NCBI RefSeq assembly: GCF_000829235.1
Contig: NZ_AP012549.1
Span: forward strand, 2,762,319-2,794,318
DNA length: 32,000 nucleotides
From: a cyanobacterium endosymbiont of Epithemia turgida isolate EtSB Lake Yunoko
Lineage (GTDB): Bacteria > Cyanobacteriota > Cyanobacteriia > Cyanobacteriales > Microcystaceae
Direction of reading: 5' to 3'
Translations under genes and position numbers: made by a program
Shown here: positions 3,629 to 32,000 of the stretch, piece by piece
Numbering within the stretch: the stretch's first letter is position 1
Layout: every line of letters begins with the position of its first letter
The notes under the pieces: generated by a model
The model's input: only the letters and a program-made list of their open reading frames with translations
Database searches by the model: none
What the model was told of the DNA's origin: nothing

Positions 3629-4029
3629 TATTTTCTTATTGAGTCCCAATTGTCTTTAATATAATTTAATTTTTCTATCCAACAATATCCTCTCAATTCT
3701 TTCCACATTTATCCATCTACATAGTCTTAATTCTAACTAGAATACTAATTTTAAACTAGTTTAAAAATCAATAAATATTTTTATATTATTCTTTATTTTA
3801 AAATTTTATTTCTTAGATTTGTAACCCCTTCTTTTTGGTGTTTATGAGATTTATTAAAAATATCCTTGATATAAAAAAATATCTCATTACAGAGAATGCA
3901 CTCTGTTTAAGTGTTAATTCCTAAAATTTTTGCAAAAATGGATATTATTTTTTAGTTTAGGTAAATTAAGATTTGGAGGTGACTAAGCTTTTATAGACAT
4001 TGTTTTTATCTAGATTATTCCTTTATTAT
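3629..4029. repeat. Left copy of a large inverted repeat (partner 31600-32000)
   Basis: Hand alignment shows 3629-4029 equals the reverse complement of 31600-32000, with one mismatch (3979 g versus the complement of 31650 t). The inner boundary at 4029/4030 is sharp. The outer extent is unknown because the partner is cut by the window edge. The repeat is ORF-free and AT-rich. Confidence 0.95.
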
Positions 4030-4695
4030 ATTGTAATTAAACTACTAAATTTAGTTAATTTACTTTTTTATTTTCTGTCTTTTTTATTGACCTACTCTCT
4101 TTCAATATAATTGGTAATTTCTTTACTTTTTATTGCCTGATATTCAAACATAAATATTATGCTATTGTTCTGATTATACATATAACTTTATAGTTGTATT
4201 TTAACTTGTATAGTTATTAACTCTATAATTCTACTATTTTTTTAGCTATACTAATTACTATCTAAATCCTCGCTTATTTAAAACGATACTTTCTCTTCTG
4301 TACGGATTTAAAATCATCTGCTTAACTACCAATTTATTATACCCAGTCTAAACCCTAAGCTAAAATAGACTGCTTATAAATTATATAATAAGATAACTAG
4401 AGGGTATGTAAAGGTAATATGATACTTATATATTTTAAAAGTTCAATAAAATTCAAAAACAATTTTTTAAAAAAATCTAGTAATGAGGATATCGTCAATT
4501 TTAATAAAAATAACTTACTACCTATTCAATAATTTTAAAAATAAATTTATTGATTCAACTTTTATTGAAGTGATGCATTATCTTTTAAGACTAAGCGAGA
4601 AGCTTCAACAATTTTTTCGATTCAAGAGAAAGATTTGAGACTACAATAACCAATGTGAGATAGAGACGGTGGCTTAACTCTAGGAAGTAATATTT

Positions 4696-5754
4696 ATGGA
4701 TGAATCAGAGAAAATACCAGTCGGAATTATTGGAGCTTCAGGGTACGGTGGTATACAACTGGTGCGGATATTACTAGAACATCCAAACATAGATATCGTC
4801 TATCTTGGAGGCATTAAAAGTGCAGGAAAACTCTATTGGGATCTTTATCCCCATTTAGTACATCGCGTTGATCTGACTATCGAACCTATTGACATAGATG
4901 TGGTAGCTTCCCGTTGTAAAGTAGTATTTTTGGGACTTCCAAATGGGCTAGCTTGCGAGCTAGCCCCCCAATTACTGGTAAAAGGTTGTAAAGTCCTAGA
5001 TCTGTCTGCAGACTATCGTTTTCGTAATTTAGACACCTACACTGCATGGTACAACAAGAATCGCACTGATCACGAAACCGCCATGCAATCTGTCTATGGG
5101 CTTCCTGAATTGTACCAAGAAGAAATTAAATCTACTTCTTTGGTGGGATGTCCTGGATGTTACCCTACAGCAAGTTTGATGGCTTTATCTCCTCTCCTCA
5201 AACAAGGCTTAATTATTCCTGAGACTGCCATTATTGACGCTAAGTCAGGAACATCAGGGGGAGGCCGGCAAGCTAAAACTCATCTCTTACTCGCAGAAGC
5301 AGAGGGTTCGTGTATGGCTTACGAAGTGGCTAAACATCGCCACACACCAGAAATAGAACAAATTTGTTCTGATTTAGCCGGACATGAAGTTCGGGTTCAG
5401 TTTACCCCCCATTTACTTCCTATGGTTCGAGGTATTCTGGCAACGGTTTATGCATCTCTAAGAGATCCTGGGCTAGTTAGAGATGATATTCTGACCATTT
5501 ATAGTGCATTTTACCGTTCTTTCCCCTTCGTAAAAATTCTTCCTCACGGTATTTATCCTCAAACTAAATGGGCCTGGGGAACTAATCTTTGTTATATTGG
5601 AGTTGAAACAGATCCCCATACTGATCGCGTCATCGTTATGTCTGCTATTGATAACATAGTCAAGGGTCAAGCAGGACAGGCAGTGCAGTGCTTGAACTTA
5701 ATGATGGGTTGGGATCAAACCCTAGGACTACCTCAATTGTGTTTTTATCCCTAA
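4696..5754 (+). CDS. argC: N-acetyl-gamma-glutamyl-phosphate reductase
   Basis: 352-aa ORF. N-terminal Rossmann motif [10 protein letters not shown], active-site region GCPGCYPTA, and C-terminal [13 protein letters not shown]-like block ([20 protein letters not shown]) are typical of ArgC. AGGAAG lies upstream of the ATG. Confidence 0.93.
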
Positions 5755-5904
5755 CTAGAAACAAGCAATAGCAACAATTGTAGTTTTCTATTGACTTTAA
5801 CAATGTCGATTTTTATTCCAGATTTAGTTGAATATGCTATGTATTCTTGCGAAGAAAGTCCTTTCCTATCAACAATGCTTATTGAATGCTACCTTGGGAA
5901 ATTG

Positions 5905-6240
5905 GGATGTCCCTCCAACTTTTTAAGGATATAAAGGGGGAATCTTTTGGAAGTCATTCATAGACTTTATTCTTTACAGGACTTAGGTATTACTGCTTTA
6001 TGTTTTAATTCTATTTTTCAGTATGCTAGTAATTATGATTATCACATCCATGATTACTATACAGTTGATACCCTTTTGGGTGAAAATTAAGCTTTGAAAA
6101 ACTTATATAAAGGAGTAGATGAACGTAACTTTAAAGTCATCTTAGATGGGGTTGTTAACTGTACCAGTCGGGGCTTTTTCTCTTTAATTAAATCTTAAAA
6201 AACGGACCTAATTCTCCTTGTTTAAATTAGTTTAAAATCG
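5905..6240 (+). pseudogene. Decayed fragment of a GH13 (alpha-amylase family, neopullulanase/alpha-glucosidase-like) gene
   Basis: Hand translation from 5938 gives GNLLEVIHRLYSLQDLGITALCFNSIFQYASNYDYHIHDYYTVDTLLGEN*ALKNLYKGVDERNFKVILDGVVNCTSRGFF. This parallels the GH13 N-terminal catalytic core (GGDL.GI...LdYL.dLG..a..l.PIF...snH.YD..DY..vDp..G......L....h..gikViLDgVfNH). There is an in-frame TAA at 6088-6090 and another at 6196-6198. A frameshift in the G-run near 5936-5940 separates the upstream PPTF*GYKGG piece. A shifted tail KNGPNSPCLN*FKI lies at 6198-6239. The region-I His is replaced (NH -> NC). Confidence 0.65.
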
Positions 6241-6702
6241 TCAGTTGACTATTATCTATTTATAATGGCAATTTATCGGTAAATTACCTCTCTTATATTA
6301 ATTTTAGTTAAAGTGCTTCCTTATTTCATACAATAAAATTTAAACAACTGTCTGTTTTATATCTAGATAATATATTTATTGTTATTTACAATAATTAAGG
6401 AATAACATCGATAAAATCGATTTAATGGAATTTAACATCAATCCAGTGATTGGATTCCATAAAGCAAGAATTGTTTTAGCTGTAGGTTTGTATTCATAGG
6501 CTTCTACTGAAATGTCGTTGGCAGTGATTAAGTAAATATATTTTTTGCCGATGTCTAATATATATTAATATAGTGACAATTTGATTTAGTATGTTTGTTG
6601 TAATACTTAAAAATTTGGTAAAGAAAATATTCAACAGGTTTCCCTTAAGAAAGAAATTACATCTTATATCAAAATAATTTAATTGTTTATCACTTTTTTA
6701 TC

Positions 6703-6731
6703 TTGACTATTGGATGTCTTTGATCTATATA
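6703..6731 (+). promoter_or_regulatory. Near-consensus sigma70-type promoter (TTGACT - 17 nt - TATATA) facing an ORF-free block of coding-like GC
   Basis: TTGACT at 6703-6708, an exact 17-nt spacer at 6709-6725, and TATATA at 6726-6731. The predicted start is near 6738. Chance matches are possible in AT-rich DNA, so confidence is modest. Confidence 0.35.
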
Positions 6732-7183
6732 GTAGAGTCGTTGTAGAGTGTCCAACTAACATAAATGGGGGTAAGCCTTAGCTTCTACACGGAAGCACCA
6801 TATTCCACAATGTCTTAGCATTGAAATAGAAGTGTGGTCAGGGCTTGAGACAAAGCTATAGAAGCTGGAATAGAATAAGTATAACCAACGCTTGGAAACA
6901 GGCTAAGAAATCAAAGGGCGAACCTCGAGTTTAGGACAGTGGGGATACATATCTCTAGATTAGGACAGACAGTCGACAATGCTAAGAAACCAGAAAAGGG
7001 TAGAAGAGTTTTCATAGTAGTTAACAACCTACACATTTACAGCTAGCTGATCAATAGTTTGTAGTTTTAACTTTGGAGGTGTTTAGATAAGAGTAAATAA
7101 AAGATAATTTCTTATCTAGAAAAGACCACTGGAACAGCAAGGGAGCCCCTGCTATCCCCTTAGGTAGCTCGTCGGGAAAAATA

Positions 7184-8194
7184 TCAGGAATAAAATCGTG
7201 ATTTGAACCATTGTTGAACTAAACCAAGTTTTTGAGAATTCCTCTGCTGACGCAGTTGGTATTCTTTGTAAGCGCCATTAATACGGGCTGTAATATAATG
7301 AGCTAGGGGATGTTGAGTTCGATCAGGATGCCAAAGACGAATTAAACCCCTATAAGTTTGCTCAACTTGCAACGAAGTGGGGAAAGGATTAAGGTCTAGA
7401 ACTTTCCACCAAGGAGATGACTCATCAAAAAACGCACGATGAAGGTGGAGAGGATATTCACTCACAATAGGTTGCAACCGTCCCCAAGATGTTCCATAGA
7501 ACACCTGATAAATAGTCTTAAGTTTACTTAACCCTAGACGTTCTGTAGCTTGGTGGTGCCATTGCCGAAACCTATCGATAGTTTCTTGGTTCCAAAAAGA
7601 CTGATCCTCTTTGGCTAAAGATTCTAGGATTAATTTTGGAGTTCTTTGAGGTTCAGGCAAACTCCATAACCAGAATAATTCTGGGACAACTTGGGTGGCG
7701 AGAGGAAAATTTTTCCATTCCCAATAATTAACCCCAGGTGTGGCTAATCTTTGGCGGTAAAAAATATACCACCCTTTCTCCCAGATACACGCTAAAGGAG
7801 TCATAAGAGGGCTAGCTAAAGGATAAGCTTGTCCACGCAAAGAACTTTGGGGAGCATCTTCCAATAAACAAGTTAAAGGAGTCATAAGAAGACTAGCTAA
7901 AGGATAAGCTTGTCCACGCAAAGAACTTTGGGGAGCATCTTCCAATAAACAAGTTAAAGGAGTCATAAGAGGACTAGCTAAAGGATAAGCTTGTCCACGC
8001 AAAGAACTTTGGGGAGCATCTTCCAATAAACAAGTTAGTCGTTTAAATTGGCTATTAAGACCTTTACTTGAAGACTTAGACGAAGATAATAGCAAACAAA
8101 TACCACAAAAAATAAGGGTTAAAAGCAATAAATTTTGGAGTAAATCTCCAACAAACGTTAAAAAATTCATGATCAGGTAATCAATAATCTTCAA
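7184..8194 (-). CDS. Membrane-anchored J-domain (DnaJ-like) protein with an internal 27-aa tandem repeat
   Basis: 336-aa ORF with a hydrophobic N-terminal segment (LLLLTLIFCGICLLL). It carries three copies of LTCLLEDAPQSSLRGQAYPLASPLMTP. The C-terminal J-domain-like block is TYRGLIRLWHPDRTQHPLAHYITARINGAYKEY, with an HPD tripeptide. An alternative start is the MNFLTF codon at 8170. Confidence 0.7.
   Translation of the reverse strand: MKIIDYLIMNFLTFVGDLLQNLLLLTLIFCGICLLLSSSKSSSKGLNSQFKRLTCLLEDAPQSSLRGQAYPLASPLMTPLTCLLEDAPQSSLRGQAYPLASLLMTPLTCLLEDAPQSSLRGQAYPLASPLMTPLACIWEKGWYIFYRQRLATPGVNYWEWKNFPLATQVVPELFWLWSLPEPQRTPKLILESLAKEDQSFWNQETIDRFRQWHHQATERLGLSKLKTIYQVFYGTSWGRLQPIVSEYPLHLHRAFFDESSPWWKVLDLNPFPTSLQVEQTYRGLIRLWHPDRTQHPLAHYITARINGAYKEYQLRQQRNSQKLGLVQQWFKSRFYS
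7794..8036. repeat. Tandem repeat, 3 x 81 bp, in frame inside the J-domain gene
   Basis: Units at 7794-7874, 7875-7955 and 7956-8036 are identical except within a 5-nt patch (agagggc / agaagac / agaggac). The period is 81 bp, or 27 codons. Confidence 0.95.
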
Positions 8195-8619
8195 CGCTCG
8201 TAAAAAAAGACGAGCAAGAAATATTCTTAACTTTATATCATAATTTAACCTTGGAAAATTACCAAAAATATGATTGACAAAGATTGCGAAATATTAATAC
8301 TAAATCAAATTGTCATTTCTATTTGTGATGATAATTGCTAATATCAATTTTATTTTAAAAATTATAAAAATTCCTAATAAATCTTCTTATTAAGACTATA
8401 TTGTAAGTTGTATCACTATCTATAGTGATAGCTTGAAAGTCCGCTAAAACTAAGATTATAAAGTTTATTTTTCTATATATCTAATATATTTTTGGCAAAA
8501 ATTAGCAGATGGAATTGTTCAAAAAATTGAGGACGTTTACCCTATTCTTTTACTTATCTTTTGCTCCTTTGACAAGATAAACTAGAAAAGTCAATAAATT
8601 GTTATCGTAACTGAAGGAT

Positions 8620-10182
8620 ATGGAGCAGAAAAAAACAATGATCGCACAAAGCGAGTCTTCAACGATGGTATCTACAAGCAGGGGGAAGACTCCGGACTAT
8701 GATGTCATTGTAATTGGCTCAGGAATCGGAGGGTTAGTAACTGCCACTCAATTAGCAGTCAGGGGAGCAAAAGTCCTAGTATTAGAACGGTATTTAATTC
8801 CTGGAGGAAGTGCGGGATATTTTGAACGGGAAGGATATCGCTTTGATGTGGGTGCGTCTATGATTTTTGGGTTTGGTAGCAAAGGAACGACCAACTTACT
8901 TACTCGCGCCCTAGAAGCCGTTGACGTTAGTCTGGAAACAATTGAAGATCTTGTACAGATTCATTATCATTTACCTCAAGGATTAGACCTAAAAGTTTAT
9001 CGAGACTATGAAAAATTTATAGAAGAATTAATCACTAAATTTCCGCAAGAGAAAACAGGAATTCGCCGTTTTTACGATGAATGTTGGAAAGTCTTTAACT
9101 GCCTCAATACCATGGAGTTACTTTCCTTGGAAGAACCTCGTTACTTAACACGGGTCTTTTTCCAGAATCCCATGTCCTGTTTAAAGTTGATTAAATATTT
9201 ACCACAAAATGTGGGAGAAATTGCCAGACGCTATGTCAGTGATCTCCAACTATTGAAATTCATTGATATGGAATGTTACTGCTGGTCAGTGGTTCGGTCC
9301 GATCTCACCCCAATGATCAATGCAGGGATGGTATTTTCTGACCGTCATTATGGAGGTATTAATTATCCTAAAGGAGGAGTAGGACAAATTGCCCAGAAAT
9401 TAGTGGAAGGACTTGAAAAAGTAAAGGGAAAAGTTCAGTATAAAGCTAGAGTCACTAAAATTTTGCTAGAAAAGAAAAAAGCGGTGGGCGTAGAATTAGC
9501 CAATGGCCAACAATATTTTGCTAAGCGTATTGTTTCTAATGCCACTCGTTGGGATACTTTTGAAAAATTATTGACTCCAAAAGTAATGCTGGCTAAGGAA
9601 AACCGATGGAGAAATCGTTATCAAAAATCCCCCAGTTTTCTTAGTTTACATTTAGGGGTAAAGGCTGATTTATTGCCTCCTCAAACCGAATGTCATCACG
9701 TTTTGTTAGAAAATTGGGACAAAATGGAAGCTGAACAGGGAACGATTTTTGTTTCTATTCCCACGCTTCTTGATCCGAGTTTAGCTCCTCGTGATCATCA
9801 TATTATCCACACCTTTACCCCAAGCTGGATTAAAGGATGGCAAGGACTTTCTACTAGAGAATACCAAAAACAAAAAAAAAGAGCTACTAATGATTTAATT
9901 GGAAGATTAGAAAAAATTTTTCCAGGTTTAAGTCAAGCTTTGGACTATCAAGCAGTGGGAACCCCCCGAACTCATCGAAGGTTTTTAGGACGAGATGACG
10001 GAACCTATGGACCTATTCCAAAGCGAAAATTAGCAGGGTTGTTGGGAATGCCTTTTAACCAAACTGCGATCACTGGACTTTATTGTGTGGGAGACAGTAC
10101 TTTTCCTGGACAAGGGTTAAATGCAGTTGCTTTCTCGGGGTTTGCTTGCAGCCATCGTATTGCCGTTGATCTAGGTTTGTAA
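8620..10182 (+). CDS. crtH: Carotenoid (prolycopene) cis-trans isomerase, CRTISO/CrtH type FAD-dependent oxidoreductase
   Basis: 520-aa ORF with the dinucleotide-binding motif DVIVIGSGIGGL. The blocks LERYLIPGGSAGYFEREGYRFDVGASMIFGFG and the C-terminal GLYCVGDSTFPGQGLNAV match the CrtH/CRTISO family as I remember it. Confidence 0.8.
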   Translation: MEQKKTMIAQSESSTMVSTSRGKTPDYDVIVIGSGIGGLVTATQLAVRGAKVLVLERYLIPGGSAGYFEREGYRFDVGASMIFGFGSKGTTNLLTRALEAVDVSLETIEDLVQIHYHLPQGLDLKVYRDYEKFIEELITKFPQEKTGIRRFYDECWKVFNCLNTMELLSLEEPRYLTRVFFQNPMSCLKLIKYLPQNVGEIARRYVSDLQLLKFIDMECYCWSVVRSDLTPMINAGMVFSDRHYGGINYPKGGVGQIAQKLVEGLEKVKGKVQYKARVTKILLEKKKAVGVELANGQQYFAKRIVSNATRWDTFEKLLTPKVMLAKENRWRNRYQKSPSFLSLHLGVKADLLPPQTECHHVLLENWDKMEAEQGTIFVSIPTLLDPSLAPRDHHIIHTFTPSWIKGWQGLSTREYQKQKKRATNDLIGRLEKIFPGLSQALDYQAVGTPRTHRRFLGRDDGTYGPIPKRKLAGLLGMPFNQTAITGLYCVGDSTFPGQGLNAVAFSGFACSHRIAVDLGL

Positions 10183-11693
10183 AACTTGTCCTGAAAACCT
10201 ATTCTATGGCGCGTTGAGTTCTTGTCATGATTGAAGTGCAAATACAATTGAATCTAACTAAAAATTTCTTAGTGGACTAGACATCCAATAAAAATAAGTG
10301 GAGCAAAAAACTATTTTAAGTTATCAGCGAATGGTTAACAGCCAACGGTGACTCATTAATGATCACTGTTTATCTCCGAATTGTTTATTCAACTTCTAGA
10401 AATATGGTAGTACTTAAATACTATATGATAAAAAATTATGTAATTTATAACAATACATTATTTATTCTATTTAAACCATTGCTGATTAAAAGGTAACACC
10501 GTCAAATACTGCTCCCATTCTTACTAAGATAGATAATTAGCAACTATTCGAGTTTCTAAATAAATATTGTCATAGTTAACATTTCAACTTTGGATTGACA
10601 AACCAATCCTAACTACTAAAAGTGAGGGCAATTATTAGGTTTTCTCAAACCATCAATGATATCTTAACACACAATTTTACTGATATGTTGGAGGAATAAT
10701 TTTCAAGAAACCCCTATATTTTAGGGAAAAATTAAGGTGATTACAATAGAGAAAATTTAATTTCCATTTAATTGAATAGTAATCGCTTGTAACTTTAATT
10801 ACTGTAAATAATCTATCACCGGTAATTTATCTTTCAAAAATCATTATACTAATTACTCTTTAGTATGAATATCTGTAGTCTTCAATATAAAAGTACATAT
10901 TTAAATTTGAGTAGATAATAACCCGTAAACAACTTGTGTATAATAAACAACAAATAAATAATATTGATCCGTTTTTATTGGGTATAAAATTCGCAATATT
11001 TTAACTGTTGTAAAAAATAATTGTAATTTTCTGGTAACAAAAATTAACCAATTATGTTCTTAAAGAGCAATCATATAAAACAAAAGTTATTAACTAGATA
11101 AAAGAAAGAAATCTACACTTAGAAGATAAAATATTAAAATTGAAAATATTAACGTTTTATCTTTACTTTAACTAATTTTTAAAAATTAATTGAAGAGATA
11201 AACAAGTTTTCATAAAAAATATAAATTATAAAATTTGGAGGTCAGCTTTAATCGGCTACTATCGGAGAGTAAAACTACTAACTTGACTTCTTAAGAATCT
11301 ATTAATAGATACTAATTTCATGAAAAAATATTCGATATATCTAGTATTTTAAAAAAATTTTAATACTTATGTTCTCCTAGAAAATACACAAAAATTATAT
11401 AAAAAATCCTTAAACTATAATTACATTACGCAATTTTAGGTTTTTTTTATTTAATAATATTTATTATCTTAGCAATAAAATTTTTATATATTTTTTAAGT
11501 TTTTTCATAGATAAAAATTGTGTATTTTGGTAGAAAATAATTGCTCTTATTAACGTAGGGTTAACTATATTACAAGAAATAGTAGAATTACTTAATGACA
11601 CAATTAAAATAACTCATGAATTAATAGGTAATCTTGAAGACGGTATAATTGTTGTAAGATTAAGTCGTTACTTAATAGCTATCTTCGATTTTT

Positions 11694-13385
11694 ATGCTTA
11701 CCCAGAGAGTATTGTATAAATCGCCACGTTGGCAACGCTCTAAACTTTCTCCTATGATGCGTCAATGGGAGATTTTAGGGTTTAGTTTTAAATTTTTTCT
11801 AGGGTTAGGATGGGATAAACTGATTCGGAATAATTCCTCTAAACGTAGACATAAACGTGCAAGATGGTTGGTAAAAAACTTGTTAGAATTAGGTCCAACA
11901 TTTATTAAAATCGGTCAATCTCTTTCTACCCGTGTTGATATTATTCCCTTTGAATATATTCAAGAATTGAGTCAATTACAAGATCGGGTTCCTCCTTTTA
12001 ATTCTGATGAGGCAATCAAAGTAATAGAAACTGAACTGGGTAAGTCAATTAATGAGTTATTTAAGGACTTTAAGTCAATCCCCCTAGCCTCAGCAAGTTT
12101 AGGACAAGTTCATCGCGCTAAATTGTATACAGGACAAGAAGTTGTTGTTAAAGTTCAACGGACTGGATTAGAAAAAATTTTTAATTTAGATTTTGAAATT
12201 ATACATCGTTTAATTCGTTTACTTAATCGCTATCTTTCTAATTTAAGACAATATCAACTCGAAGCAATTTACAAAGAATTTTTTGAGCTTTTATTTCAAG
12301 AAATAGATTATATTCGTGAAGGTAAAAATGCCGAGCGGTTTCGAAAAAACTTCAAACACTACTCGCAAATTAAAGTGCCTAAAGTTTATTGGAAATATAC
12401 TACTAAAAATATCTTAGTATTAGAATATCTCCCAGGAATTAAAGTAGATGATCGTACTACTTTAAAGGATAGCAGAATTAATTTGGATAGTATCATCCAA
12501 CTAGGAATTTGCTCTTATCTAAAACAATTATTAATTGATGGTTTTTTTCAATCAGATCCCCACCCTGGAAATATGGCTGTAAGTCAAAGAGGGGAATTAA
12601 TTTTTTATGATTTTGGTTCTATGACAGAAGTTAAATTGATGGACAAAGAACAAATGATTCAAACCTTTTTTGCCGTCTTAAAAAGAGATACGGATAAAGT
12701 AGTTGAAACTTTAGTCTATATGGGGTTAATTGAACCCTTGAAAGACATGAGTGCTATCAAACAGATTGTTGGATTTATCTTGGAAAATTTTCGAGATAAA
12801 CCGGTAGATGTTAAAGCATTTGAAGTTATTAACGATGAAGTGTATTTAATGTTCAAAAAACAACCCTTTCGTTTACCGCCTCAGATGACGTTTATTATTA
12901 AATCTTTAACTACCCTCGATGGTATTGCCCGTGCACTAGATCCTCAATATAATTTCTTAACAGCAAGCAAACCTTTTGTCAAAAGTATTGCCTTAAGTAA
13001 TGGACAAGGAATAGTTATTAGTGCCATAGCTCAACAAGCAAAAGACTTTATTAAAAAAACCTGGCAAAATCCCAACTCAACTAATCGATTAATGCAAAGG
13101 CTGGTGCAAAAATTTGACCAAGAGGAACTGCAATTTCGGATTCGTTATCTAGAAGAAAATAAAAAAAACTTTAAACTCATTAGTTTAGGGATTAAGTGTT
13201 TGATTTATACCTGTTTAACAGGATTTACTTTGTTATTAACTTTGATATTAGTCATCTCCACATATTTTAAATTAGCTGTGGTTGGTTTTGGCTTATCAGG
13301 GTTATTTGGCTTATTTTTTTTGCGTTCCATAATTACCTTGATGAATCAGGAAAAAATTAACAATGTTTTTGATCACAAAAGTTAG
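11694..13385 (+). CDS. ABC1/UbiB (AarF) family atypical protein kinase with a C-terminal membrane segment
   Basis: 563-aa ORF. It has the ABC1 signature LGPTFIKIGQSLSTRVDIIPFEYIQELSQLQDRVPPF, the lysine region ASLGQVHRA, the catalytic-loop-like FFQSDPHPGNM, and a hydrophobic C-terminus. Confidence 0.88.
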   Translation: MLTQRVLYKSPRWQRSKLSPMMRQWEILGFSFKFFLGLGWDKLIRNNSSKRRHKRARWLVKNLLELGPTFIKIGQSLSTRVDIIPFEYIQELSQLQDRVPPFNSDEAIKVIETELGKSINELFKDFKSIPLASASLGQVHRAKLYTGQEVVVKVQRTGLEKIFNLDFEIIHRLIRLLNRYLSNLRQYQLEAIYKEFFELLFQEIDYIREGKNAERFRKNFKHYSQIKVPKVYWKYTTKNILVLEYLPGIKVDDRTTLKDSRINLDSIIQLGICSYLKQLLIDGFFQSDPHPGNMAVSQRGELIFYDFGSMTEVKLMDKEQMIQTFFAVLKRDTDKVVETLVYMGLIEPLKDMSAIKQIVGFILENFRDKPVDVKAFEVINDEVYLMFKKQPFRLPPQMTFIIKSLTTLDGIARALDPQYNFLTASKPFVKSIALSNGQGIVISAIAQQAKDFIKKTWQNPNSTNRLMQRLVQKFDQEELQFRIRYLEENKKNFKLISLGIKCLIYTCLTGFTLLLTLILVISTYFKLAVVGFGLSGLFGLFFLRSIITLMNQEKINNVFDHKS

Positions 13386-13428
13386 CTCATCAACTTTTTT
13401 ATTTTGTGTTTTTCTTAATGTAGAATCA

Positions 13429-14283: not shown

Positions 14284-14349
14284 AATTTAAGATTGATTTA
14301 GATAACTTTCTAACTAACAGTTTACTTAATAAATTTACGATTAATGTCA

Positions 14350-14392: not shown

Positions 14393-14548
14393 ACAAAAAG
14401 TCTACATAAAAAGAAGACTATCCTTTCTTTTCCCTTTTTTGGAGAGAGTCTTTAATATATTTCAGCTTCAGCTGACGGAGTCGACTTTCTTTCTGTAGAA
14501 GTTCCTAGTTTTTTGGGAAACTTCTTCGACTTTCTCTTCTACTATAAC

Positions 14549-19900: not shown

Positions 19901-19911
19901 GAATTACTAAT

Positions 19912-21871: not shown

Positions 21872-22368
21872 GCGTTTTACCTCAGTTGTTAATCTTTTAA
21901 GGATCTCATCTGTTTTAAAATGCTTGTTTGTGTAATATTATAGTCCTTTGCTAATCAAGCTTTAGCCAGGTTTGGTCTTAGCAGATTTCACGTCAAGCTT
22001 TTATCAAAACTAATTAATAGATCAAGATGTAATTTATATGAATCATGGTTAAGAATTGGAAAAAAATCAACTAACCCAAATTTTAGGTAATATCATCACT
22101 ATAGTCAAATAATAATGTTAATTAATTAAATATTTTTTGTAAAAGCAGTCAAGAAATAAATCACTCCCACTAATATAATAAATTCTTGGTTCATGGTTGT
22201 TTAAAATAAATTAATTTAATAAGGTTACTAATAAATAATAAGTGATATAAAATTAGACTCTCCTATGATTGAAGATAATAGAAAAATAGACCAGAACTAC
22301 GAACTACCATGGAAACCTGGACAAAAAAACTTTCATAGGTTAAAGCTCGCATGATCATTGTAGCATAC

Positions 22369-23733
22369 TTAAGAATTGAGTTTTAACAAGGCTGCACATT
22401 CAATGTGGAAAGTCTGTGGAAAAAAATCACTCGGTTGTACCCAAATTAATTCATAAGTCTTCCCCTGACATAATTTTTGGAGATCTCGTGCTAGAGTTGG
22501 TGGTTGACAACTAATATAGACTATATAAGATGGTCGAACGTTCCTGAGAGTTTCGATGACTGATTGATCGCAGCCTTTACGAGGAGGATCAAGAATCACA
22601 ACATCAGGTAAGAATGATAGTTGGGGTAATAAGCTTTCGACAGTTCCCATCAGAAACGAAACATTGTTAATACCATTAAGTTGGGCGTTTTTTCGCGCTT
22701 GAGTAACCGAAGTGGAGTTAACTTCTAGACCAATAATTTGTTGTACCTGTTGAGCTAAAGGTAAGGTAAAAGTCCCTATGCCGCAGTAAGCATCGACTAA
22801 CTGTTCGGTTCCAGTTAGATTGAGTTGTTCAATAATTTTGTTTATCAGGGTTTCGGCCGCTTCGGTATTTACCTGAAAAAATGTATCAGGACCTAAGTGT
22901 AGTTCCAGTCCTACAAATATTTCCCGCAAATAGGAACGACCAGCAATAGTTAGAGTTTCTTGTCCAGAAATGACATTGCCCCGATCAGGGTTATGATTGA
23001 GGGAAACTCCGACTAAATCAGGATACCTTTTCAACCATGTCTGTGCCTGTGTATCAACATTTCGCAGTTTTTTGTCGGTACTAACCAAGGTCAAAAGTAC
23101 TTCTCCAGTATGCCGTCCTATCCTTAGAGAAAGATGACGTAGTTTTCCCTGATGACGTTTTTCATCATAAATAGACCACCCTTGTTCTTGAATATCTTTT
23201 TTTACCTCGACTAGGAGAGGATTAAGGCGAGAATCTTGGATAGGGCATTGGTTAAGGTTAATGATTTGATGACTATTTCTGCGAAAATAGCCTCCTTGAA
23301 CATTGCCTGCGGCTGAACGTCCTAGGGGATAGGTAACCTTATTACGATAGCCTAGTCCCATTTTTGGTGCCAAAATGGGGACAACAGGAGGATTCTTGAA
23401 CCTACCAATATACTCTAGAGATTTGATGACGTGGTTCTGTTTAACGATACGTTGGTAAGTCTCATCAATATGCTGCCATTGACAACCTCCACACTTATCA
23501 GCCACGATGCAAGAGGGACGAAGACGATGTTGGGAAGGAGAGAGAAGTTTCTGTAATTTTCCGTAGGCGTATTGCTTTTTGATGTGAACTAATCGGACTA
23601 AGACGTGATCACCCGTTACCGTATCAGCAACAAAAATAGCACGTCCTTCAAAATGTCCAACGCCATCACCACTGTTACTAAGATCAGTAATTTCTAGTTC
23701 AACGAGACTTCCTTGTTGATAGCCTTGGGTCAT
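22369..23733 (-). CDS. rlmD: 23S rRNA (uracil-C5)-methyltransferase, RlmD/RumA family
   Basis: It has an N-terminal TRAM-like domain, the Fe-S cysteine cluster C...CGGCQWQH, the SAM motif DAYCGIGTF, PPRKG, and the catalytic ISCQPPTLARD. Confidence 0.85.
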   Translation of the reverse strand: MTQGYQQGSLVELEITDLSNSGDGVGHFEGRAIFVADTVTGDHVLVRLVHIKKQYAYGKLQKLLSPSQHRLRPSCIVADKCGGCQWQHIDETYQRIVKQNHVIKSLEYIGRFKNPPVVPILAPKMGLGYRNKVTYPLGRSAAGNVQGGYFRRNSHQIINLNQCPIQDSRLNPLLVEVKKDIQEQGWSIYDEKRHQGKLRHLSLRIGRHTGEVLLTLVSTDKKLRNVDTQAQTWLKRYPDLVGVSLNHNPDRGNVISGQETLTIAGRSYLREIFVGLELHLGPDTFFQVNTEAAETLINKIIEQLNLTGTEQLVDAYCGIGTFTLPLAQQVQQIIGLEVNSTSVTQARKNAQLNGINNVSFLMGTVESLLPQLSFLPDVVILDPPRKGCDQSVIETLRNVRPSYIVYISCQPPTLARDLQKLCQGKTYELIWVQPSDFFPQTFHIECAALLKLNS

Positions 23734-23902
23734 GGCAATAAAGCGTTTATCTTCGCTAAAATTTGAAATAATTTCATTCTAGCTTGTCCCATCTCACCCT
23801 TGTAAAAAATATCCAACTGTTTCTAAGCATTTCATCTTGATGATCGCATTAGATACAATTAAGTTTTATAAATCTTAACCAACTCACCTCCTCTTGCCCA
23901 AA

Positions 23903-25273
23903 ATGTCTTCTACTCCAAAACTAAAATATGATCGCGGAACTATAATTCTTCATCCTCCCCCCAGGGGGAAAGCTTGGAGCAAATTGGCAACTTGGGATGT
24001 TCGCATCGAAAAATTCCGTATCCAAGCCATTCACTATTATCTTTTAGTAGAGACTCTACAAGCTGACAAAGTTCACTTTATTGATGAAGCGAAAGCTTTT
24101 ATTTCATTAGAATTAAACCCTAATTTCCAACGAATTCCTTATCCCCATCAACTTGAAGCCCTTGCTGCTTGGAAACAACATAAACATCGAGGGGTAGTTG
24201 TCCTTCCCACAGCAGCGGGAAAGACTTATTTAGCGCAATTAGCCCTAGAATCTATTTCCAAGACTACTTTAATTTTGGTTCCTACCTTGGATTTAATGCA
24301 CCAATGGTACACTCAAATTATGGGGGCGTTTACTAATGTGGAGGTGGGGTTATTAGGAGGGGGTTCGCGTGATCGCACTCCTATTTTAATCGCTACTTAT
24401 AATAGTGCAGCTATTCATGCGGAGATCTTGGGAAATCAATATGCTCTTCTTATTTTCGATGAATGTCATCATTTGCCGACAGATTTTTTTCGAGTCATTG
24501 CTGAATACGCCATTGCCCCCTATCGGTTAGGGTTAACAGCAACACCAGAAAGGGCTGATGGCAGTTATCGGGACTTAGAAACCCTTATTGGTCCGTTGGT
24601 TTATCACAAAGGAGTAAAAGATCTCGCGGGCAAAATTTTAGCACAACATCAAATTATTCAAATTAAAGTTAAATTATCCGAGTTAGAAAGAGAAAGATAT
24701 AAAGAAGCGATCATTATTCGCAATGAATTTTTAAAAAAGTCTAATATTTCTTTGAGCAATTTAAATAATTGGCAATTGTTTCTTAAAACAAGTTCTAGAT
24801 CTTCTTCGGGAAGACGGGCGATGTTAGCTCATAGAGAGGCCAAAGAAATTGCAGCAGGAACTGATGAAAAGCTCAGAATACTAACGGATTTAATTTGCCG
24901 ACACTCCGAAGAATCTATTTTAATTTTTACTAATGATAACGCCACCGTTTATCGAATTTCCCAAGAATTTTTAATCCCCGCCATTACCCACCAAACTCCT
25001 GTGAAAGAACGTTACGAGATTTTAACTCGATTTCGAGAGGCGATTTACACGACTTTGGTCACTTCTCATGTTCTTAATGAAGGTATAGATGTTCCTGAAG
25101 TTAAGATTGCAATTATTTTATCGGGAACAGGTTCCACACGGGAGTATATTCAGAGATTAGGTCGAATTTTACGCAAAGGAACCAGCAAAAACGGATTAGC
25201 TATTTTATATGAGGTCGTAGCTGAAGATACTAGTGAGGAAAGAACATCTCAACGGCGACGAGGAAAAGATTAA
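23903..25273 (+). CDS. XPB/Rad25 (ERCC3)-like SF2 DNA helicase
   Basis: It has the N-terminal LKYDRGTIILHPPP, motif I PTAAGKT, motif II DECHH, motif III GLTATPER and motif VI QRLGRILR. The track start is TTG at 23894; the ATG at 23903 was chosen. Confidence 0.8.
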   Translation: MSSTPKLKYDRGTIILHPPPRGKAWSKLATWDVRIEKFRIQAIHYYLLVETLQADKVHFIDEAKAFISLELNPNFQRIPYPHQLEALAAWKQHKHRGVVVLPTAAGKTYLAQLALESISKTTLILVPTLDLMHQWYTQIMGAFTNVEVGLLGGGSRDRTPILIATYNSAAIHAEILGNQYALLIFDECHHLPTDFFRVIAEYAIAPYRLGLTATPERADGSYRDLETLIGPLVYHKGVKDLAGKILAQHQIIQIKVKLSELERERYKEAIIIRNEFLKKSNISLSNLNNWQLFLKTSSRSSSGRRAMLAHREAKEIAAGTDEKLRILTDLICRHSEESILIFTNDNATVYRISQEFLIPAITHQTPVKERYEILTRFREAIYTTLVTSHVLNEGIDVPEVKIAIILSGTGSTREYIQRLGRILRKGTSKNGLAILYEVVAEDTSEERTSQRRRGKD

Positions 25274-25478
25274 TATATCTCTAAACTAACTAAGTAAAGT
25301 TTCAAATAAAACCTAAGAATTGGAATTGCCCCCTTACAATGCTCCAAAATGATATCACCTTTAATATATTTTTACTAAAGCTGCAGAATATAAATTCTAT
25401 GTTAGACCATAATTTTTGAATTTATTTCTAATTAAATTTAGTTAATATTAATCATTCTATTCATTAAGATGTAAAACT

Positions 25479-26117
25479 CTAAGGAGCTAATCGGTCAATC
25501 TCCCAAGTTTTATTATCCTGTAAATTGTAGCAAAAGCGATCATGTAATCGATTAGGCCTACCCTGCCAAAACTCAAAATAATGAGGAACAACTCGATAGC
25601 CGCCCCAAAATGAAGGAAGGGGAATTTCTCCTTGATCAAACTTACGCTGCATTTCATTAAACTTCATTTCTAAAAGCTGTCTAGAAGAGATAACAGAACT
25701 CTGAGAAGAAGACCAAGCACCTAGTTTACTTCCTCTTGGTCGAGTGACAAAGTATTTCAGGGATTCTGCCGTTGAAACTTTAGCTGCTTTTCCCTTTATT
25801 TTGACCTGACGTTCTAGGGGCAACCAGAGAAATAAGAGAGCAACAGAGTAATTTCTATCTATCTGTTTAGCTTTATTGCTTTCATAATTGGTAAAAAAAA
25901 CAAACCCTTGAGTATCAAAGTATTTTAAAAGAACGGTTCTTAATGAGGGTTCACCTTTAGCTGAAACAGTTGCTAAACTCATGGCGTTCGGTTCAGTTAG
26001 TTCAGCTTTAACAGCCTGTTTAAACCAGGTTTCAAATTGTTTAAACGGTTCAGTTTCAAGGTTTTTACGAGATAAACCATTGTGAGTGTATTCTTCTCTT
26101 AAGGCTCCAATATCCAT
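25479..26117 (-). CDS. pdxH: Pyridoxamine 5'-phosphate oxidase
   Basis: [10 protein letters not shown]...[24 protein letters not shown] and the C-terminal [14 protein letters not shown]...RLAP are canonical PdxH. Confidence 0.93.
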
Positions 26118-26227
26118 GAATTTTTGAATATGTTAATAGTCGATAATCCATTTTAAACTAATAAATCAGTTAATAACTATTGATGCTTACAATCAATCAT
26201 AAAATACCAGAGGGCTAAAATCGCCAG

Positions 26228-27010
26228 ATGCTAGATAATTTATTATTTTTAATTGTTAGTGGTTTATTTTCGGGTTTGTTGGCTGGACTACTAGGCATTG
26301 GGGGAGGAACTATATTAGTTCCTTTATTAGTAACCCTTGGTCATATGCCCGTACAGGCTGTTGCCACAAGTAGTTTAGCCATTTTTATTACCTCTTTATC
26401 AGGAAGTATTCAGAATTGGCGTAGGGGTTATTTAGATCTACAGCGCGTTATCCTTTTAGGGTCTCCGGCCTTAATTACAGCTCAATTTGGAGTACATACT
26501 GCTAATTTACTTCCCGATTATATGTTGTTAACTACTTTGGGGATTTTACTAATTATTAATGTTTTCTTAGGAAACTTACGTCAACGGTTAGCTACCCGAC
26601 TAGCTTCTACTCATACTAAAACCATCAAAATTTTTACGAAAATAGCTCGTTTAGGAACCGGAGGAACCGCCGGATTTCTGGCAGGTTTATTCGGTATTGG
26701 TGGGGGAGTCATTATGGTTCCACTACAGATATTATTTTTAGGGGAAACCATTAAAATCGCTATTCAGACGAGTTTAGGAGTGATTGTTATTACCACCCTT
26801 TCTGCTACTATAGGCCATGCTTTACAAGGAAATGTTGTATTCCCTATTGGACTTATATTAGGAGTAGGAGGATTAGTTGGCTCACGAATAAGTACCAGTC
26901 TTCTTCCAAAGTTACCCGATAGAGTGGTTCAATTTTGTTTCTATGGACTATTAGTCATTTTAGCAGTTTATACTTTTTGGCAAGCTTGGCAAAGCTATAG
27001 TAGAACGTAA
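26228..27010 (+). CDS. TauE/SafE (DUF81) family anion exporter-like membrane protein
   Basis: 260-aa polytopic ORF with two internally duplicated halves, each starting with a GxxAGLLGIGGG-type motif (AGLLGIGGGTILVP and AGLFGIGGGVIMVP). Confidence 0.8.
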   Translation: MLDNLLFLIVSGLFSGLLAGLLGIGGGTILVPLLVTLGHMPVQAVATSSLAIFITSLSGSIQNWRRGYLDLQRVILLGSPALITAQFGVHTANLLPDYMLLTTLGILLIINVFLGNLRQRLATRLASTHTKTIKIFTKIARLGTGGTAGFLAGLFGIGGGVIMVPLQILFLGETIKIAIQTSLGVIVITTLSATIGHALQGNVVFPIGLILGVGGLVGSRISTSLLPKLPDRVVQFCFYGLLVILAVYTFWQAWQSYSRT

Positions 27011-27116
27011 AATTGAGCATGAACGACTTTCAAAAATCAGGAGGAATTAACAACTGTTGACCCCTAGATTAGTTCGTGGTCGACTATTGATTATTCATCA
27101 TTAACCTGATAAATTG

Positions 27117-29411
27117 TTAGATTCTACTATCTATCGTTTGAGTCTTAGTTCGATCTAACTTCAGAATTAAAACTCCTAAAGGTGGCAAACATAAATCAAG
27201 AGAACAGGGAAGGCTATGGAATGACCATTGATCAGTCCATTTACCTCCCAAATTTCCCATATTACTGCCGCCGTATTTCCTAGCATCACTATTAAATAAC
27301 TCAGTATAAAATCCCTCTTCGGGAACACCAATTCGGTAATGACTATGAGGTTGGGGGGTGAAATTACAAACAACAATCACAAACTCTGTAGGGTTTTTAC
27401 TCCATCGAATAAAAGATACTACACTATGACGGTTATCGCTACAATCAATCCACTGAAATCCTTCTTCTTCAAAATCACGGTCATAAAGGGCGGGTTCACT
27501 TTTATAAAGGGCATTTAGTTCGGTAAAAAACCGTTTAAGCTGTCGGTGGGGGTTATATTCCAACAGATGCCATTCTAAATCTCCCCAAACATTCCACTCA
27601 CTCCATTGGCCAAATTCCATGCTCATAAACATGGTCTTTTTCCCAGGATGGGTAAACATATAGCTAAATAACGCGCGTACGTTAGCATATTTTTGCCATT
27701 CATCTCCTGGCATTTTTCCCATCATGTTGCTTTTGCCATGTACTACTTCGTCGTGGGACAACGCCAACATGTAGTTCTCACTGTGGTGATACCACATACT
27801 AAAGGTGATATTGTTTTGGTGAAATTGACGAAACCAAGGGTCTATTCCAAAATAGTCGAGTATATCATGCATCCACCCCATATTCCACTTGAGGTTAAAT
27901 CCTAGTCCCCCAACATAAGTAGGACAAGAAACCATTGGCCAGGAAGTAGACTCTTCAGCAATAGATAATACCCCTGGAAAATAGCTATAAAGAACACTGT
28001 TGACTTGTCGCAAGAAATCAGCAGCCTCTAGATTTTCCCGTCCACCATATTCGTTGGCTATCCATTCCCCATCTTTTCGCAGATAATCACGGTAAAGCAT
28101 AGATGCAACTGCGTCTACTCGAATGCCATCAATATGATACTTATCAAACCAAAACAGAACATTAGCCACTAAAAAGTTACGAACTTCGTTACGTCCATAG
28201 TTAAAGACAAGAGTTCCCCACTCTTTATGTTCTCCTTCACGAGAATCAGCATATTCATAGAGGTGAGTGCCATCAAAAAAAGCTAACCCATGACCATCTT
28301 TAGGAAAATGACCTGGAACCCAGTCTAAAATGATTCCAATACCATTTTCATGGCACTTATCTACGAAATACATGAAATCTTCGGGGCGGCCATAACGCGA
28401 GGTAGGAGCATAGTATCCGGTAACTTGATACCCCCAGGAACCATCAAACGGATGTTCAGCAATGGGTAATAATTCAATATGGGTATACCCCAATTCCTTA
28501 ACATAGGCAATTAGCTTATCCGCGAACTCATAATAGCTGAGAAAACGCGCCCCTGTATTCCATTCTGAGACTTGGACAGGATCCAATTCTCCATTAAGGA
28601 CAGAGGTTTTTTCTTCCGAAGAAGCATGTAACCATGAACCTAAATGAACCTCGTATACTGAAACTGGTTGACTGAGGGGATCTTGATTGCGACGGTTCTC
28701 CATCCAGTCAGCATCTTGCCATTGATAGCTTTCAAGATCGGCAACGATAGAGGCAGTTTTGGGACGAACTTCCTGAAAAAAACTATAGGGATCAGATTTT
28801 TCATAAATATGACCTTCCCAGTTTTTCACTTCATATTTGTAGTGGGTTCCCACACCAATTCCGGGAATAAACAATTCCCAAACATTATTGAAGCGTTTAC
28901 GCATTTGATGTTGGCGGCCATCCCACTGGTTAAAATCTCCTAAAATAGAAACATTACGAGCATTAGGAGCCCACAGGGCAAAATAAACTCCTTTTACCTC
29001 CTTAACTTCCCCTGAATGTGCCCCTAATTTTTCGTAAATGCGGTGGTGGTTTCCTTCAGCAAACAAATGTAAATCAAATTCGGTTAAGTTAGAAAAAGGG
29101 AAACTATAAGGATCATATATAATTCGCTCGTTTTCTCCTTCTTTTACCCGTAATTGATAATTGTTTAATTGGGAAGTTTCAATAATACATTCAAAAAAGT
29201 TAGGGTGATAAACCGCTTCCATCTCATATTCTTGGTGTTCGGCTGGACATACTATCCAAGCGGCTTGAATGTTTGGTAAATAGGCGCGGACCACCCATCG
29301 AGGAGAAGATCTATCGTTATTAAGAAGATGGCAACCTAACACCTCAAAGGGATCATGGTGTAGGTTGTAGACAATTTGATTAACTTGATCAGAAGAAATA
29401 GTTGGGGTCAT
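27117..29411 (-). CDS. glgB: 1,4-alpha-glucan branching enzyme
   Basis: 764-aa ORF. The GH13 regions [26 protein letters not shown] and LSHDEV occur in the GlgB arrangement, with the N-terminal CBM48-type region. Confidence 0.95.
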
Positions 29412-29806
29412 TCAGTTACCAATCTTAACAAACTCTGAAGGCGAAACTGCCCTAGTAAATCGTTACTACTTACTTTACAATTAGCTGCTCAAAAGCCTAC
29501 TAGCCTTAGTCATGCCGACGCGGGTTTTCTTGATAGAAAAAGGTCTGTCGGGCGGTTTGCTATAATCTTCCTTGAGTGAATTATCCCGAACTCCTATCCA
29601 GGTATCACTGACCCATCCAGGCGTGCTGCTTAACCATCTCTACTTTCATATTAGTTAGCTAAAGGTAGGACTGTCCTCAATTGTTTAGCCGATAAAACCC
29701 AGTTTTTGTAAGTCTTATAACACTGTTTAGTTAAATTAGTATGTATTATTATAAGTGATTAGTATAATTATAACGGTAAGCAACTACTCTGAAAATAATC
29801 AGTCCC

Positions 29807-30493
29807 TTAAAAATTGAGGAGTTCTGATAACCGCCGTTGAACTTTACTAGTGTAAGGATCGCCGATCAATAATTCTGATAAAGCGCGACGGTAGTCTGCG
29901 GTCGCACAATTCCAATCTCCACGAAGATAGTAGGTATATCCCCGTTCTCCATAAATTCTTCCTTTAAGGGGTTTTCCAATCACTAAGGAAAAATCAAAGG
30001 TTTCCAAGGCTAGATCGTGCCATTCCAATTCTCGCAAGGTAATTCCTTTGTTAATCCATGCTCTTTGATTATAAGGATTTAAGTCTAAGGATATTTCGTA
30101 GTCTTCTAACGCCTTGACTAAGTTACCTAAATCAGCATGACAATTACCTCGATTATTATAGGCTTTGTCGAGGTAAGGGTTGAGGATAATAGCTTTTTCA
30201 AAGTCTTCTATAGCCCTGAAAAAGTTCCCTTGTTTACAGTACATTAACCCTCGGTTATTGTAATCCATAGCACTTTTGGGATGACGGTTAATCAATTGGT
30301 TAAGCAGAGTAATAGCACCTCGATAGTCTTCTTGTTCAGCTTTCTCTCTGATATACGCCCGTAACCCTTCGTCTGATATCTTCTGATGCTCTATTGAACA
30401 GCCTAGAATTAACGAACACCAATGACTCCCTTGAGTTTGTCTTGATGGTTCAGCTTTTTTTGAATTAGAGTTGTAAATTGTATTAATTTCCAT
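29807..30493 (-). CDS. Tetratricopeptide repeat (TPR) protein
   Basis: 228-aa ORF with several 34-aa repeats of the A..Y.N.G......G....A..D...A/S..L.P type (for example AMDYNNRGLMYCKQGNFFRAIEDFEKAIILNP). Confidence 0.8.
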   Translation of the reverse strand: MEINTIYNSNSKKAEPSRQTQGSHWCSLILGCSIEHQKISDEGLRAYIREKAEQEDYRGAITLLNQLINRHPKSAMDYNNRGLMYCKQGNFFRAIEDFEKAIILNPYLDKAYNNRGNCHADLGNLVKALEDYEISLDLNPYNQRAWINKGITLRELEWHDLALETFDFSLVIGKPLKGRIYGERGYTYYLRGDWNCATADYRRALSELLIGDPYTSKVQRRLSELLNF

Positions 30494-30843
30494 GATTTAC
30501 TCTCTTTATGTATCTTAATATTCACCGTACTCGACGATTTTTCCGATAACTAGTTACATTGTGTCAATCTAATAATTGTCTTGGATCAATAAATTAGCTA
30601 TTTCAGAATAGTAGAAAAAAACAATAACAGCTAAGAGCTAAAAGTTTTATTATATAAAACTTCCTGAATCATAAAAACTTGTTTTTAAACGGTTTAATTT
30701 TTTTAAAAAAATAAAATGCAGTCAGAATACTAATTCTTAAAGTTATTAGTGACTAATTTATCATGCCCAGCCTGAAAGAGCCAATATATTTTAAAGTAAA
30801 AGATATTTTAAAGAACTACATTAGTTTATTTTGATTATTTTAA

Positions 30844-30869
30844 AAAATCTTAAAAATTTTTAAGATTTT
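30844..30869. repeat. 26-nt perfect palindrome (AAAATCTTAAAAA|TTTTTAAGATTTT)
   Basis: Verified base by base around the centre 30856/30857. It is AT-rich, so partly expected by chance. Confidence 0.8.
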
Positions 30870-31227
30870 GGTTTATTCTGTATGTTTACAGAGAATAGAA
30901 AATAGAGAAATAATAAATTCTACACCATGTAAGATAATGTTATACTTAGTCTTCATTCATAGCATCATGAACAGCTTATGAAGAAAAGTATCAATATAAA
31001 TATTGAATAAGAGAATATTTTTTTTTGCATAGATATTCTAGTATATTTTACGTTTTTATTTAAAAAAGGAACTCACTGTTGTCTATATTCTAGTGGTAAA
31101 ATTATGTTTGGTTATTTTTTATAAAACATAAATAACTCTTGCATGAGTTTTGTTTAGCATATATTTTTACACGATACTTAGTTGCTTTTTACTTGTACAA
31201 AAGTTTTATAAACTTTATGCAAGTTAG

Positions 31228-31290
31228 TTTTCTGTTAGATTATTTTCAATAAAATATTTTTTATATTATTGAAAATAATCTAACAGAAAA
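31228..31290. repeat. Perfect 25-bp inverted repeat (hairpin) with a 13-nt loop
   Basis: TTTTCTGTTAGATTATTTTCAATAA (31228-31252) is the exact reverse complement of 31266-31290. The loop is AATATTTTTTATA. Confidence 0.95.
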
Positions 31291-31599
31291 TAGCTTTAAT
31301 TATTCTATGTAATACCATTACAATCAATATTTAAAATTATTCTTTATTAATCATAATTCTTTAATAGTCACTATTTCCATTACGCTGAAAAAATTGGTTT
31401 AGCAAAATTATAATTCCATTTTTTATAGATTTTATATATTTGCTGCAAACAATGTTATTGATTAATTTTATCTATTTTTACTTAAATTTCAATGCTTAGT
31501 GAATATCAAAACTGTTTTAACAGAAAAATTTATCTTGACTTTTTTAAAGTTTGTATAATTTTGAATTGTACTGAATCTACATGTGAAAATTAATTCCTA

Positions 31600-32000
31600 A
31601 TAATAAAGGAATAATCTAGATAAAAACAATGTCTATAAAAGCTTAGTCATCTCCAAATCTTAATTTACCTAAACTAAAAAATAATATCCATTTTTGCAAA
31701 AATTTTAGGAATTAACACTTAAACAGAGTGCATTCTCTGTAATGAGATATTTTTTTATATCAAGGATATTTTTAATAAATCTCATAAACACCAAAAAGAA
31801 GGGGTTACAAATCTAAGAAATAAAATTTTAAAATAAAGAATAATATAAAAATATTTATTGATTTTTAAACTAGTTTAAAATTAGTATTCTAGTTAGAATT
31901 AAGACTATGTAGATGGATAAATGTGGAAAGAATTGAGAGGATATTGTTGGATAGAAAAATTAAATTATATTAAAGACAATTGGGACTCAATAAGAAAATA
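31600..32000. repeat. Right copy of the large inverted repeat (partner 3629-4029), truncated by the window edge
   Basis: See the left copy: 400/401 identity in reverse complement. The mapping is position p on the left to 35629-p on the right. Confidence 0.95.

Follow-up and report, generated by a model that had tools for sequence, protein, structure and literature searches.

The large inverted repeat of plastids, 10-30 kb long and carrying the ribosomal RNA (rRNA) operon, splits the genome into two single-copy regions, and gene conversion between its copies, the shifting of its edges, and inversion are established knowledge. Here we describe a locus that is alike in being an inverted pair in an endosymbiont-derived cyanobacterial genome and in the processes that seem to act on it. 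The pair lies in a 32,000-nt stretch (hereafter the window; contig NZ_AP012549.1, positions 2,762,319 to 2,794,318) of the chromosome of the cyanobacterial endosymbiont of Epithemia turgida, isolate EtSB Lake Yunoko (EtSB), where two arms bracket a block of housekeeping genes running from argC to a gene for a TPR protein (the TPR gene). Unlike the plastid repeat, the arms are 0.7 kb long and non-coding, they enclose about 1% of the 2,794,318-bp chromosome, and isomers are here only proposed.

Spheroid bodies, the nitrogen-fixing endosymbionts also called diazoplasts, are a leading model for the transition from bacterium to organelle. Several bacterial systems invite comparison with the EtSB locus. 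Inverted rRNA operons and other long repeats allow RecA-type recombination to flip the segment between them, with the breakpoints inside the repeats; the EtSB case is alike in this respect but differs in using anonymous spacer DNA as the substrate and in the small size of the segment. The cyanobacterium UCYN-A reportedly has two chromosome arrangements, a description attributed to Tripp et al. 2010. In recently host-restricted endosymbionts, rearrangements are mediated by insertion sequences (ISs), and there too repeats recombine in a decaying, AT-rich and pseudogene-rich genome, whereas the EtSB repeat lacks a transposase and terminal repeats and was seen in only two copies in the regions sampled. 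Hin/Gin-type invertible segments share with our locus the inverted repeats that bracket a segment found in two orientations. In contrast to them, the EtSB locus comes without an invertase, a short crossover site, a switchable promoter or a gene fusion, and the segment consists of 27.6 kb of housekeeping genes.

Published comparisons of EtSB with the endosymbiont of Rhopalodia gibberula report inversions and translocations at whole-genome scale only (PMC5638926), and spheroid-body chromosomes have been described as highly syntenic, free of mobile elements and unusually stable (PMC11131595). We found no description of the repeat pair, of its concerted evolution or of its link to an inversion in the searchable literature. 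The reading that we favor, with a probability of roughly 0.72, is that an old, non-coding inverted pair has been subject to homologous recombination, with gene conversion between the arms and a crossover inversion in EtSB.

The inverted repeat and its edges

Of the 401 nt at window 3629-4029, 400 are the same as in the reverse complement of 31600-32000, which reproduces the near-identical inverted repeat with one mismatch that had been noticed in a first-pass annotation of this DNA. At the 5-7% divergence seen between species in neighboring spacers, arms that had diverged freely since the split from Epithemia adnata would be expected to differ at approximately 20-28 of 401 positions, compared with the single difference observed. 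The probability of finding one difference or fewer in 401 nt at that divergence is 1e-8 to 1e-11, and chance cannot be the source of the identity between the arms. The features on which the following sections rely are:

3329..4029, plus strand: left arm, about 701 nt, non-coding, between the 714-amino-acid (aa) gene and argC; outer edge from contig L009
31600..32000, minus strand: right arm, truncated by the end of the window, with 401 of its ~701 nt visible
3979, plus strand: sole difference between the arms by arm comparison, G against A at 31650, 51 nt from the inner edge
4030..31599, no strand: enclosed block, 27,570 nt, inverted relative to five related genomes
4029..4030, no strand: EtSB-specific deletion junction, about 457 nt absent, by alignment with relatives
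656..2800, plus strand: 714-aa gene (BAP18610), encoding a Walker-A protein; left outer flank
30494..31599, minus strand: spacer upstream of the TPR gene, 94.4% identical to and colinear with L005 13378-14455 of E. adnata

The same annotation had suspected that the repeat continues leftwards past 3628, and the Logan contig L009 indeed places its outer edge at 3329. The full repeat should thus span 3329-4029 (about 701 nt), and the right copy should reach approximately 32300, with the counterpart of 3329-3628 presumably lying past the window. The description of the arms as located in open reading frame (ORF)-free spacers of about 20% GC also held: the GC content of the arms is 21.7% in surroundings of ~20%, and their longest ORF codes for 42 aa. 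No tRNA, rRNA or Rfam family was found anywhere in the window.

The inner boundaries had been called sharp. This is correct insofar as the inner flanks of the two arms are unrelated (33 of 100 bases match), but the left boundary is not the original end of the repeat. The segment absent at 4029/4030 is present in the endosymbionts of E. adnata (L007 ~8887-9343), R. gibberula and R. gibba. In these relatives the repeat runs approximately 30 nt further inward (TAGGAATTAATTTTCACAT...), a stretch that the EtSB right arm retains. The EtSB left arm jumps past this conserved continuation at 4029/4030, to sequence located ~457 nt further on in E. adnata (L007 ~9343), and the sharp boundary is therefore an EtSB-specific deletion junction. 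A short imperfect microhomology (TTTATTAT versus TTTATTTA) is found at the junction, and the lost segment includes the last ~30 nt of the ancestral repeat.

Support for the edges came from Logan contigs assembled from other read sets, which are 100% identical to EtSB wherever a comparison was possible. A 31-mer assembly was assumed for Logan, for which k minus 1 equals 30 nt. Contig L001 (SRR29904087), 100% identical to the window, starts at 4000, 30 nt inside the inner edge. A contig from SRR29904083 carrying the TPR gene and glgB starts ~1136 nt upstream of the TPR gene, which by gene coordinates corresponds to ~31629, again 30 nt inside the inner edge at 31600. Finally, the first 30 nt of L009 (SRR29904087; carrying yaaW and an O-antigen ligase gene) are the reverse complement of 3329-3358, after which the contig diverges to the yaaW side. 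All three observable edges of the repeat coincide with graph breaks in independent read sets; contigs that start 30 nt (k minus 1) inside the edges indicate branch points at the edges, and the repeat therefore spans 3329-4029 and is not an invention of the assembly. In E. adnata the outer edge of the repeat falls at the same place as in EtSB.

Additional searches returned nothing further. No Logan contig carrying the repeat itself was on record via its 42-aa ORF, and no product of the 714-aa gene was on record for an EtSB-identical sample. A 22-mer from the repeat had no match in the genome contig collection, among whose genomes EtSB and E. adnata are not included, and a 41-mer had none in the metagenome contig collection.

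Orientation of the enclosed block

Both junction regions were fetched from the chromosomes of five related endosymbionts, namely those of E. adnata (contigs L005 and L007), R. gibberula (L003/L015 and L004/L011), R. gibba (L014 and L010), E. clementina (L016 and L012) and E. pelagica uoEpiScrs1 (L017 and L013). We called orientation from this DNA because the order of accessions from the NCBI pipeline is unreliable in some of these genomes, in which adjacent genes carry distant numbers.

The five relatives share one arrangement: the 714-aa gene precedes the TPR gene, which has the same strand, and glgB comes next, with yaaW upstream of argC at the other junction. In the EtSB record, argC comes after the 714-aa gene instead; the TPR gene and glgB are read from the opposite strand at the far end of the block, and the right arm is joined to the yaaW side. 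Comparing the synteny of the block with related genomes, as the first-pass annotation had proposed, thus gave the opposite orientation in five of five cases. Among the six genomes, the argC-to-TPR block is inverted only in the EtSB record, an observation that depends on the EtSB assembly being correct.

Colinearity with E. adnata extends over four stretches: window 1-4040 corresponds to L005 9346-13388, window 32000-29000 to L005 12977-15948, window 4022-6000 to L007 9343-11305, and L009 1-3837 to L007 8240-4403. Colinearity holds on all four flanks as far as the repeat, and both breakpoints of the inversion therefore lie inside it, in agreement with the earlier proposal that such a repeat would be a substrate for inversion of the enclosed segment. 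Since the spacer at 30494..31599 aligns colinearly with its E. adnata counterpart, which separates the repeat from the TPR gene, the link between the inner edge of the repeat and the TPR gene is ancestral. We take the EtSB orientation to be probably biological rather than a choice made in assembly.

Age and concerted evolution of the repeat

Inverted pairs flanking the block were found in three of the relatives. The E. adnata pair (L005 12674-13409 versus L007 8211-8916) extends over 737 nt with 93.2% identity by blastn, or 97.4% when substitutions only are counted, and includes a 374-nt perfectly identical outer tract. The pairs in R. gibberula and R. gibba are shorter, with 373 nt at 93.0% and 159 nt at 83.6%, respectively. 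The inner end of the repeat aligned at the same position in all three genomes, and past this end the TPR-side flanks align across species, as do the argC-side flanks. Because the inner boundary is shared and the flanks are locus-specific, the duplication must predate the split of these lineages. These alignments indicate that the endosymbionts of at least E. turgida, E. adnata, R. gibberula and R. gibba inherited the inverted duplication from a shared ancestor. A separate observation concerns R. gibberula, where 56 nt (L003 13265-13320 / L004 8745-8799) match the partner copy in both orientations, which indicates an internal palindrome within the repeat.

The identity of the arms within a genome (99.75% in EtSB, 97.4% in E. 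adnata by substitutions only, and 92-93% in R. gibberula) was then set against the identity between species. The EtSB and R. gibberula copies are about 73-74% identical, and EtSB is 93.9% identical to either E. adnata copy, with unique neighboring spacers of EtSB and E. adnata ranging from 94.4 to 98.6%. The copies cluster by genome and not by locus. The site of the sole difference between the EtSB arms (3979/31650) has the A state in both R. gibberula copies and the G state in both E. adnata copies. In E. adnata, the 374-nt perfect tract borders an inner part where the copies differ by 18 substitutions and one of them has lost 30 nt; the sites that differ between the two copies are mostly changes unique to one or the other. 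This within-genome likeness bears the signature of concerted evolution by repeated gene conversion, with tract boundaries visible in E. adnata. An apparent closeness of the EtSB arms to the TPR-side copy of E. adnata (98% versus 88%) was discarded as an artefact of the 30-nt deletion, both copies being equally distant (93.9%) by substitutions.

The first-pass annotation had attributed the near-identity either to a very recent duplication or to gene conversion. The comparative data favor the second of these; the first does not stand, given the pairs in E. adnata, R. gibberula and R. gibba.

The remaining two relatives have no detectable pair. In E. clementina, a homologue of window 3051-3735 was found only upstream of argC (L012 8312-8992; L016 8965-10000 is the other junction), and it includes 278 nt that in EtSB are unique to the side of the 714-aa gene; only ~1 kb of spacer separates the 714-aa gene from the TPR gene in this genome. 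This layout points to a longer ancestral repeat of which one copy was lost, or to two inversions that did not share their breakpoints. The most economical account is an originally longer repeat that was eroded or deleted in different ways from lineage to lineage. In E. pelagica no repeat pair was detectable, the sequence being too diverged to judge.

Proposed mechanism and alternative explanations

Homologous recombination is the presumed agent, and the repeat presumably has no function of its own. The arms of the old inverted duplication would keep recombining with each other. Exchange without crossover would copy one arm onto the other, so that the pair stays alike within each genome and drifts between species, while an exchange with crossover inside the arms would flip the enclosed block and yield the arrangement in the EtSB record. 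A separate, microhomology-mediated deletion of ~457 nt would have shortened the EtSB argC-side arm at its inner end. Cyanobacteria usually hold several chromosome copies. According to a published survey, these endosymbionts keep 24 of 27 DNA-repair proteins (PMC12903740), and thus the recombination machinery is plausibly present; together, the retained repair proteins and the multiple chromosome copies would allow the arms to keep recombining. It is also conceivable, and we offer this only tentatively, that the diazoplast chromosome occurs in the cell as two isomers that convert into each other by turning the 27.6-kb block, driven by the persistent, copy-corrected repeat.

Several points weigh against this account, and most of them concern the assembly. 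The arms are ~701 nt long and near-perfect, which exceeds short reads, and the orientation of the block is unreadable from such reads; a mis-orientation or a pasted consensus could therefore have arisen. The alternative that deserves most attention, although we consider it rather unlikely, is accordingly a real repeat pair under concerted evolution combined with a 2014 EtSB assembly that mis-oriented the block and perhaps pasted one consensus into both arms. The other orientation in all five relatives fits this possibility. The independent contigs that could be obtained all end at or before the repeat, so that none spans it or shows which outer flank meets which inner flank; likewise, contigs of related strains from JGI and Logan all break off ahead of the repeat or within it and carry no orientation information. 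The identity of the arm interior could be inflated by a collapsed repeat copied into both places, and the only recorded difference is 51 nt from the unique flank, within reach of anchored reads. The E. adnata genome was likewise assembled from short reads only (PMC11131595), and the spheroid-body DNA of a sister genome was whole-genome amplified, a chimera-prone process (PMC5638926).

The record itself seems to originate in the right arm. Exact protein matches place the 714-aa protein, argC, glgB and the TPR protein at BAP18610, BAP18611, BAP18628 and BAP18629, and the O-antigen ligase gene (Wzy) adjoining yaaW is BAP16911. If yaaW is BAP16910, which is an assumed accession, 18629 - 16910 + 1 = 1720, equal to the published ORF count. 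By this accession arithmetic, the TPR gene would be the last and yaaW the first coding sequence of the circular record, straddling the right arm. Window position 32000 is then probably the end of the linearised record, with the linearisation point inside the right arm, and the adjacency of the TPR gene and yaaW would therefore exist only through the circular join. A record origin at this place suggests that the assembly was closed there. On the other side, the EtSB genome was published as closed and later re-used as a reference without a reported problem, inversions between EtSB and R. gibberula were already in print, and inversions are to be expected where a recombination-proficient genome carries a perfect inverted repeat of 0.7 kb.

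We regard as improbable the idea that the arms are relics of mobile elements (a pair of ISs or miniature inverted-repeat transposable elements, or a many-copy dispersed repeat) and that the inversion was IS-mediated. Eighteen degraded IS elements have been reported in EtSB (PMC5638926). However, family scans of the window proteins found no transposase-like ORF or family match in or beside the arms, and terminal inverted repeats are absent, as the 3329 end does not pair with the 4029 end; on both counts the first-pass annotation, which had seen no transposase ORF and no IS-like termini, was right. The plasmid collection gave no match, and there are at most two copies in the ~40 kb sampled per relative and two in the window plus L009. 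Moreover, the left copy is continuous with orthologous spacer in every freshwater relative.

Slightly less credible still is selection keeping the arms alike because of a function, for example as two copies of a promoter or small RNA that act on argC and the TPR gene. Each arm does lie upstream of a gene in the ancestral arrangement. Nevertheless, EtSB and R. gibberula are 74% identical in the repeat versus 71-76% in the surrounding spacers, no Rfam family or terminator was found, promoter-like sites are not in excess, the length of the repeat varies widely between lineages, and E. clementina and E. pelagica have no detectable pair.

We give next to no weight to a programmed segment flipped by a site-specific recombinase, for which the candidate would be the neighboring 714-aa protein, named a 'recombinase family protein' by NCBI's annotation pipeline and encoded directly beside the left arm. 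A Walker-A motif is present in this protein, but domains of the resolvase, invertase or integrase type are absent, and Pfam, NCBIfam and PDB gave no match. The protein belongs to the cyanobacterial core, with 2388 homologues that include free-living species. In the free-living Rippkaea orientalis PCC 8801 the homologue is found beside cemA, and the genes after it are those of a P-type ATPase and others, not the TPR gene. The enclosed 27.6 kb consist of housekeeping genes, and each arm, 0.7 kb long and drifting in sequence, is unlike a short conserved crossover site. No other candidate serine or tyrosine recombinase was found among the window proteins. As an observation on this gene family, the gene of the 714-aa protein usually lies beside cemA across cyanobacteria.

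A very recent duplication in EtSB, for example an inverted duplication with inversion by staggered breaks, would match the 400/401 identity in a fast-evolving spacer and an inversion confined to EtSB, but it has almost nothing left in its favor, as the non-inverted relatives already have both copies with the same inner boundary and locus-specific flanks and E. adnata shares the outer edge; the staggered-break version was dropped once both copies had been found in those relatives.

Other features of the window

The enclosed block carries, in its first part, argC and genes for a crtH-like carotenoid isomerase and an ABC1/UbiB kinase, tsf, rpsB, map and an ABC permease gene, followed by rnc, rlmD, an XPB-like helicase gene, pdxH, a TauE-like gene, glgB and the TPR gene. 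Within the ORF at 7184-8194 (minus strand, 336 aa), whose sole family match is a weak DnaJ domain (E = 2e-4), positions 7779-8037 hold three tandem 81-nt units, 93-94% identical, that form an in-frame 27-aa repeat.

A near-perfect palindrome at 31228-31290, in the spacer that precedes the TPR gene but outside the repeat, is made up of two 29-nt arms, 97% complementary, around a 5-nt loop. Its DNA fold reaches -23.6 kcal/mol with a z-score of -9.8, and the palindrome is kept in E. adnata (L005 13688-13750).

Long spacers of 1-1.9 kb, ORF-free and with 20-25% GC, interrupt the housekeeping genes at 2801-4695, 10183-11693, 16511-17601 and 30494-32000. These AT-rich spacers fit decayed pseudogenes of a shrinking genome. 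No remnants of ancestral neighbor genes were detectable in the two spacers tested, and the idea that the arms are themselves remnants of the genes that come after the 714-aa homologue in Rippkaea orientalis PCC 8801 (the P-type ATPase gene and others) was abandoned, since no trace was found at the protein or DNA level.

Significance

The mechanism is a textbook one, and the locus is a new example of it in a genome relevant to the origins of organelles. It suggests that plain spacer DNA can act as a long-lived substrate of recombination, with copies 27 kb apart that correct each other in several lineages, one of which carries the crossover product. It also calls for caution with short-read assemblies of these genomes, the reference EtSB record included. 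The locus offers a natural marker of the lengths of gene-conversion tracts and a site at which recombination, and possible heteroplasmy of isomers, can be tested by polymerase chain reaction in a young organelle-like genome. If the two-isomer reading were true, the locus would represent, in miniature and without genes, the equivalent of the plastid inverted repeat at an early stage of organelle formation, and the repeat would have persisted since before the freshwater Epithemia/Rhopalodia endosymbionts diverged.

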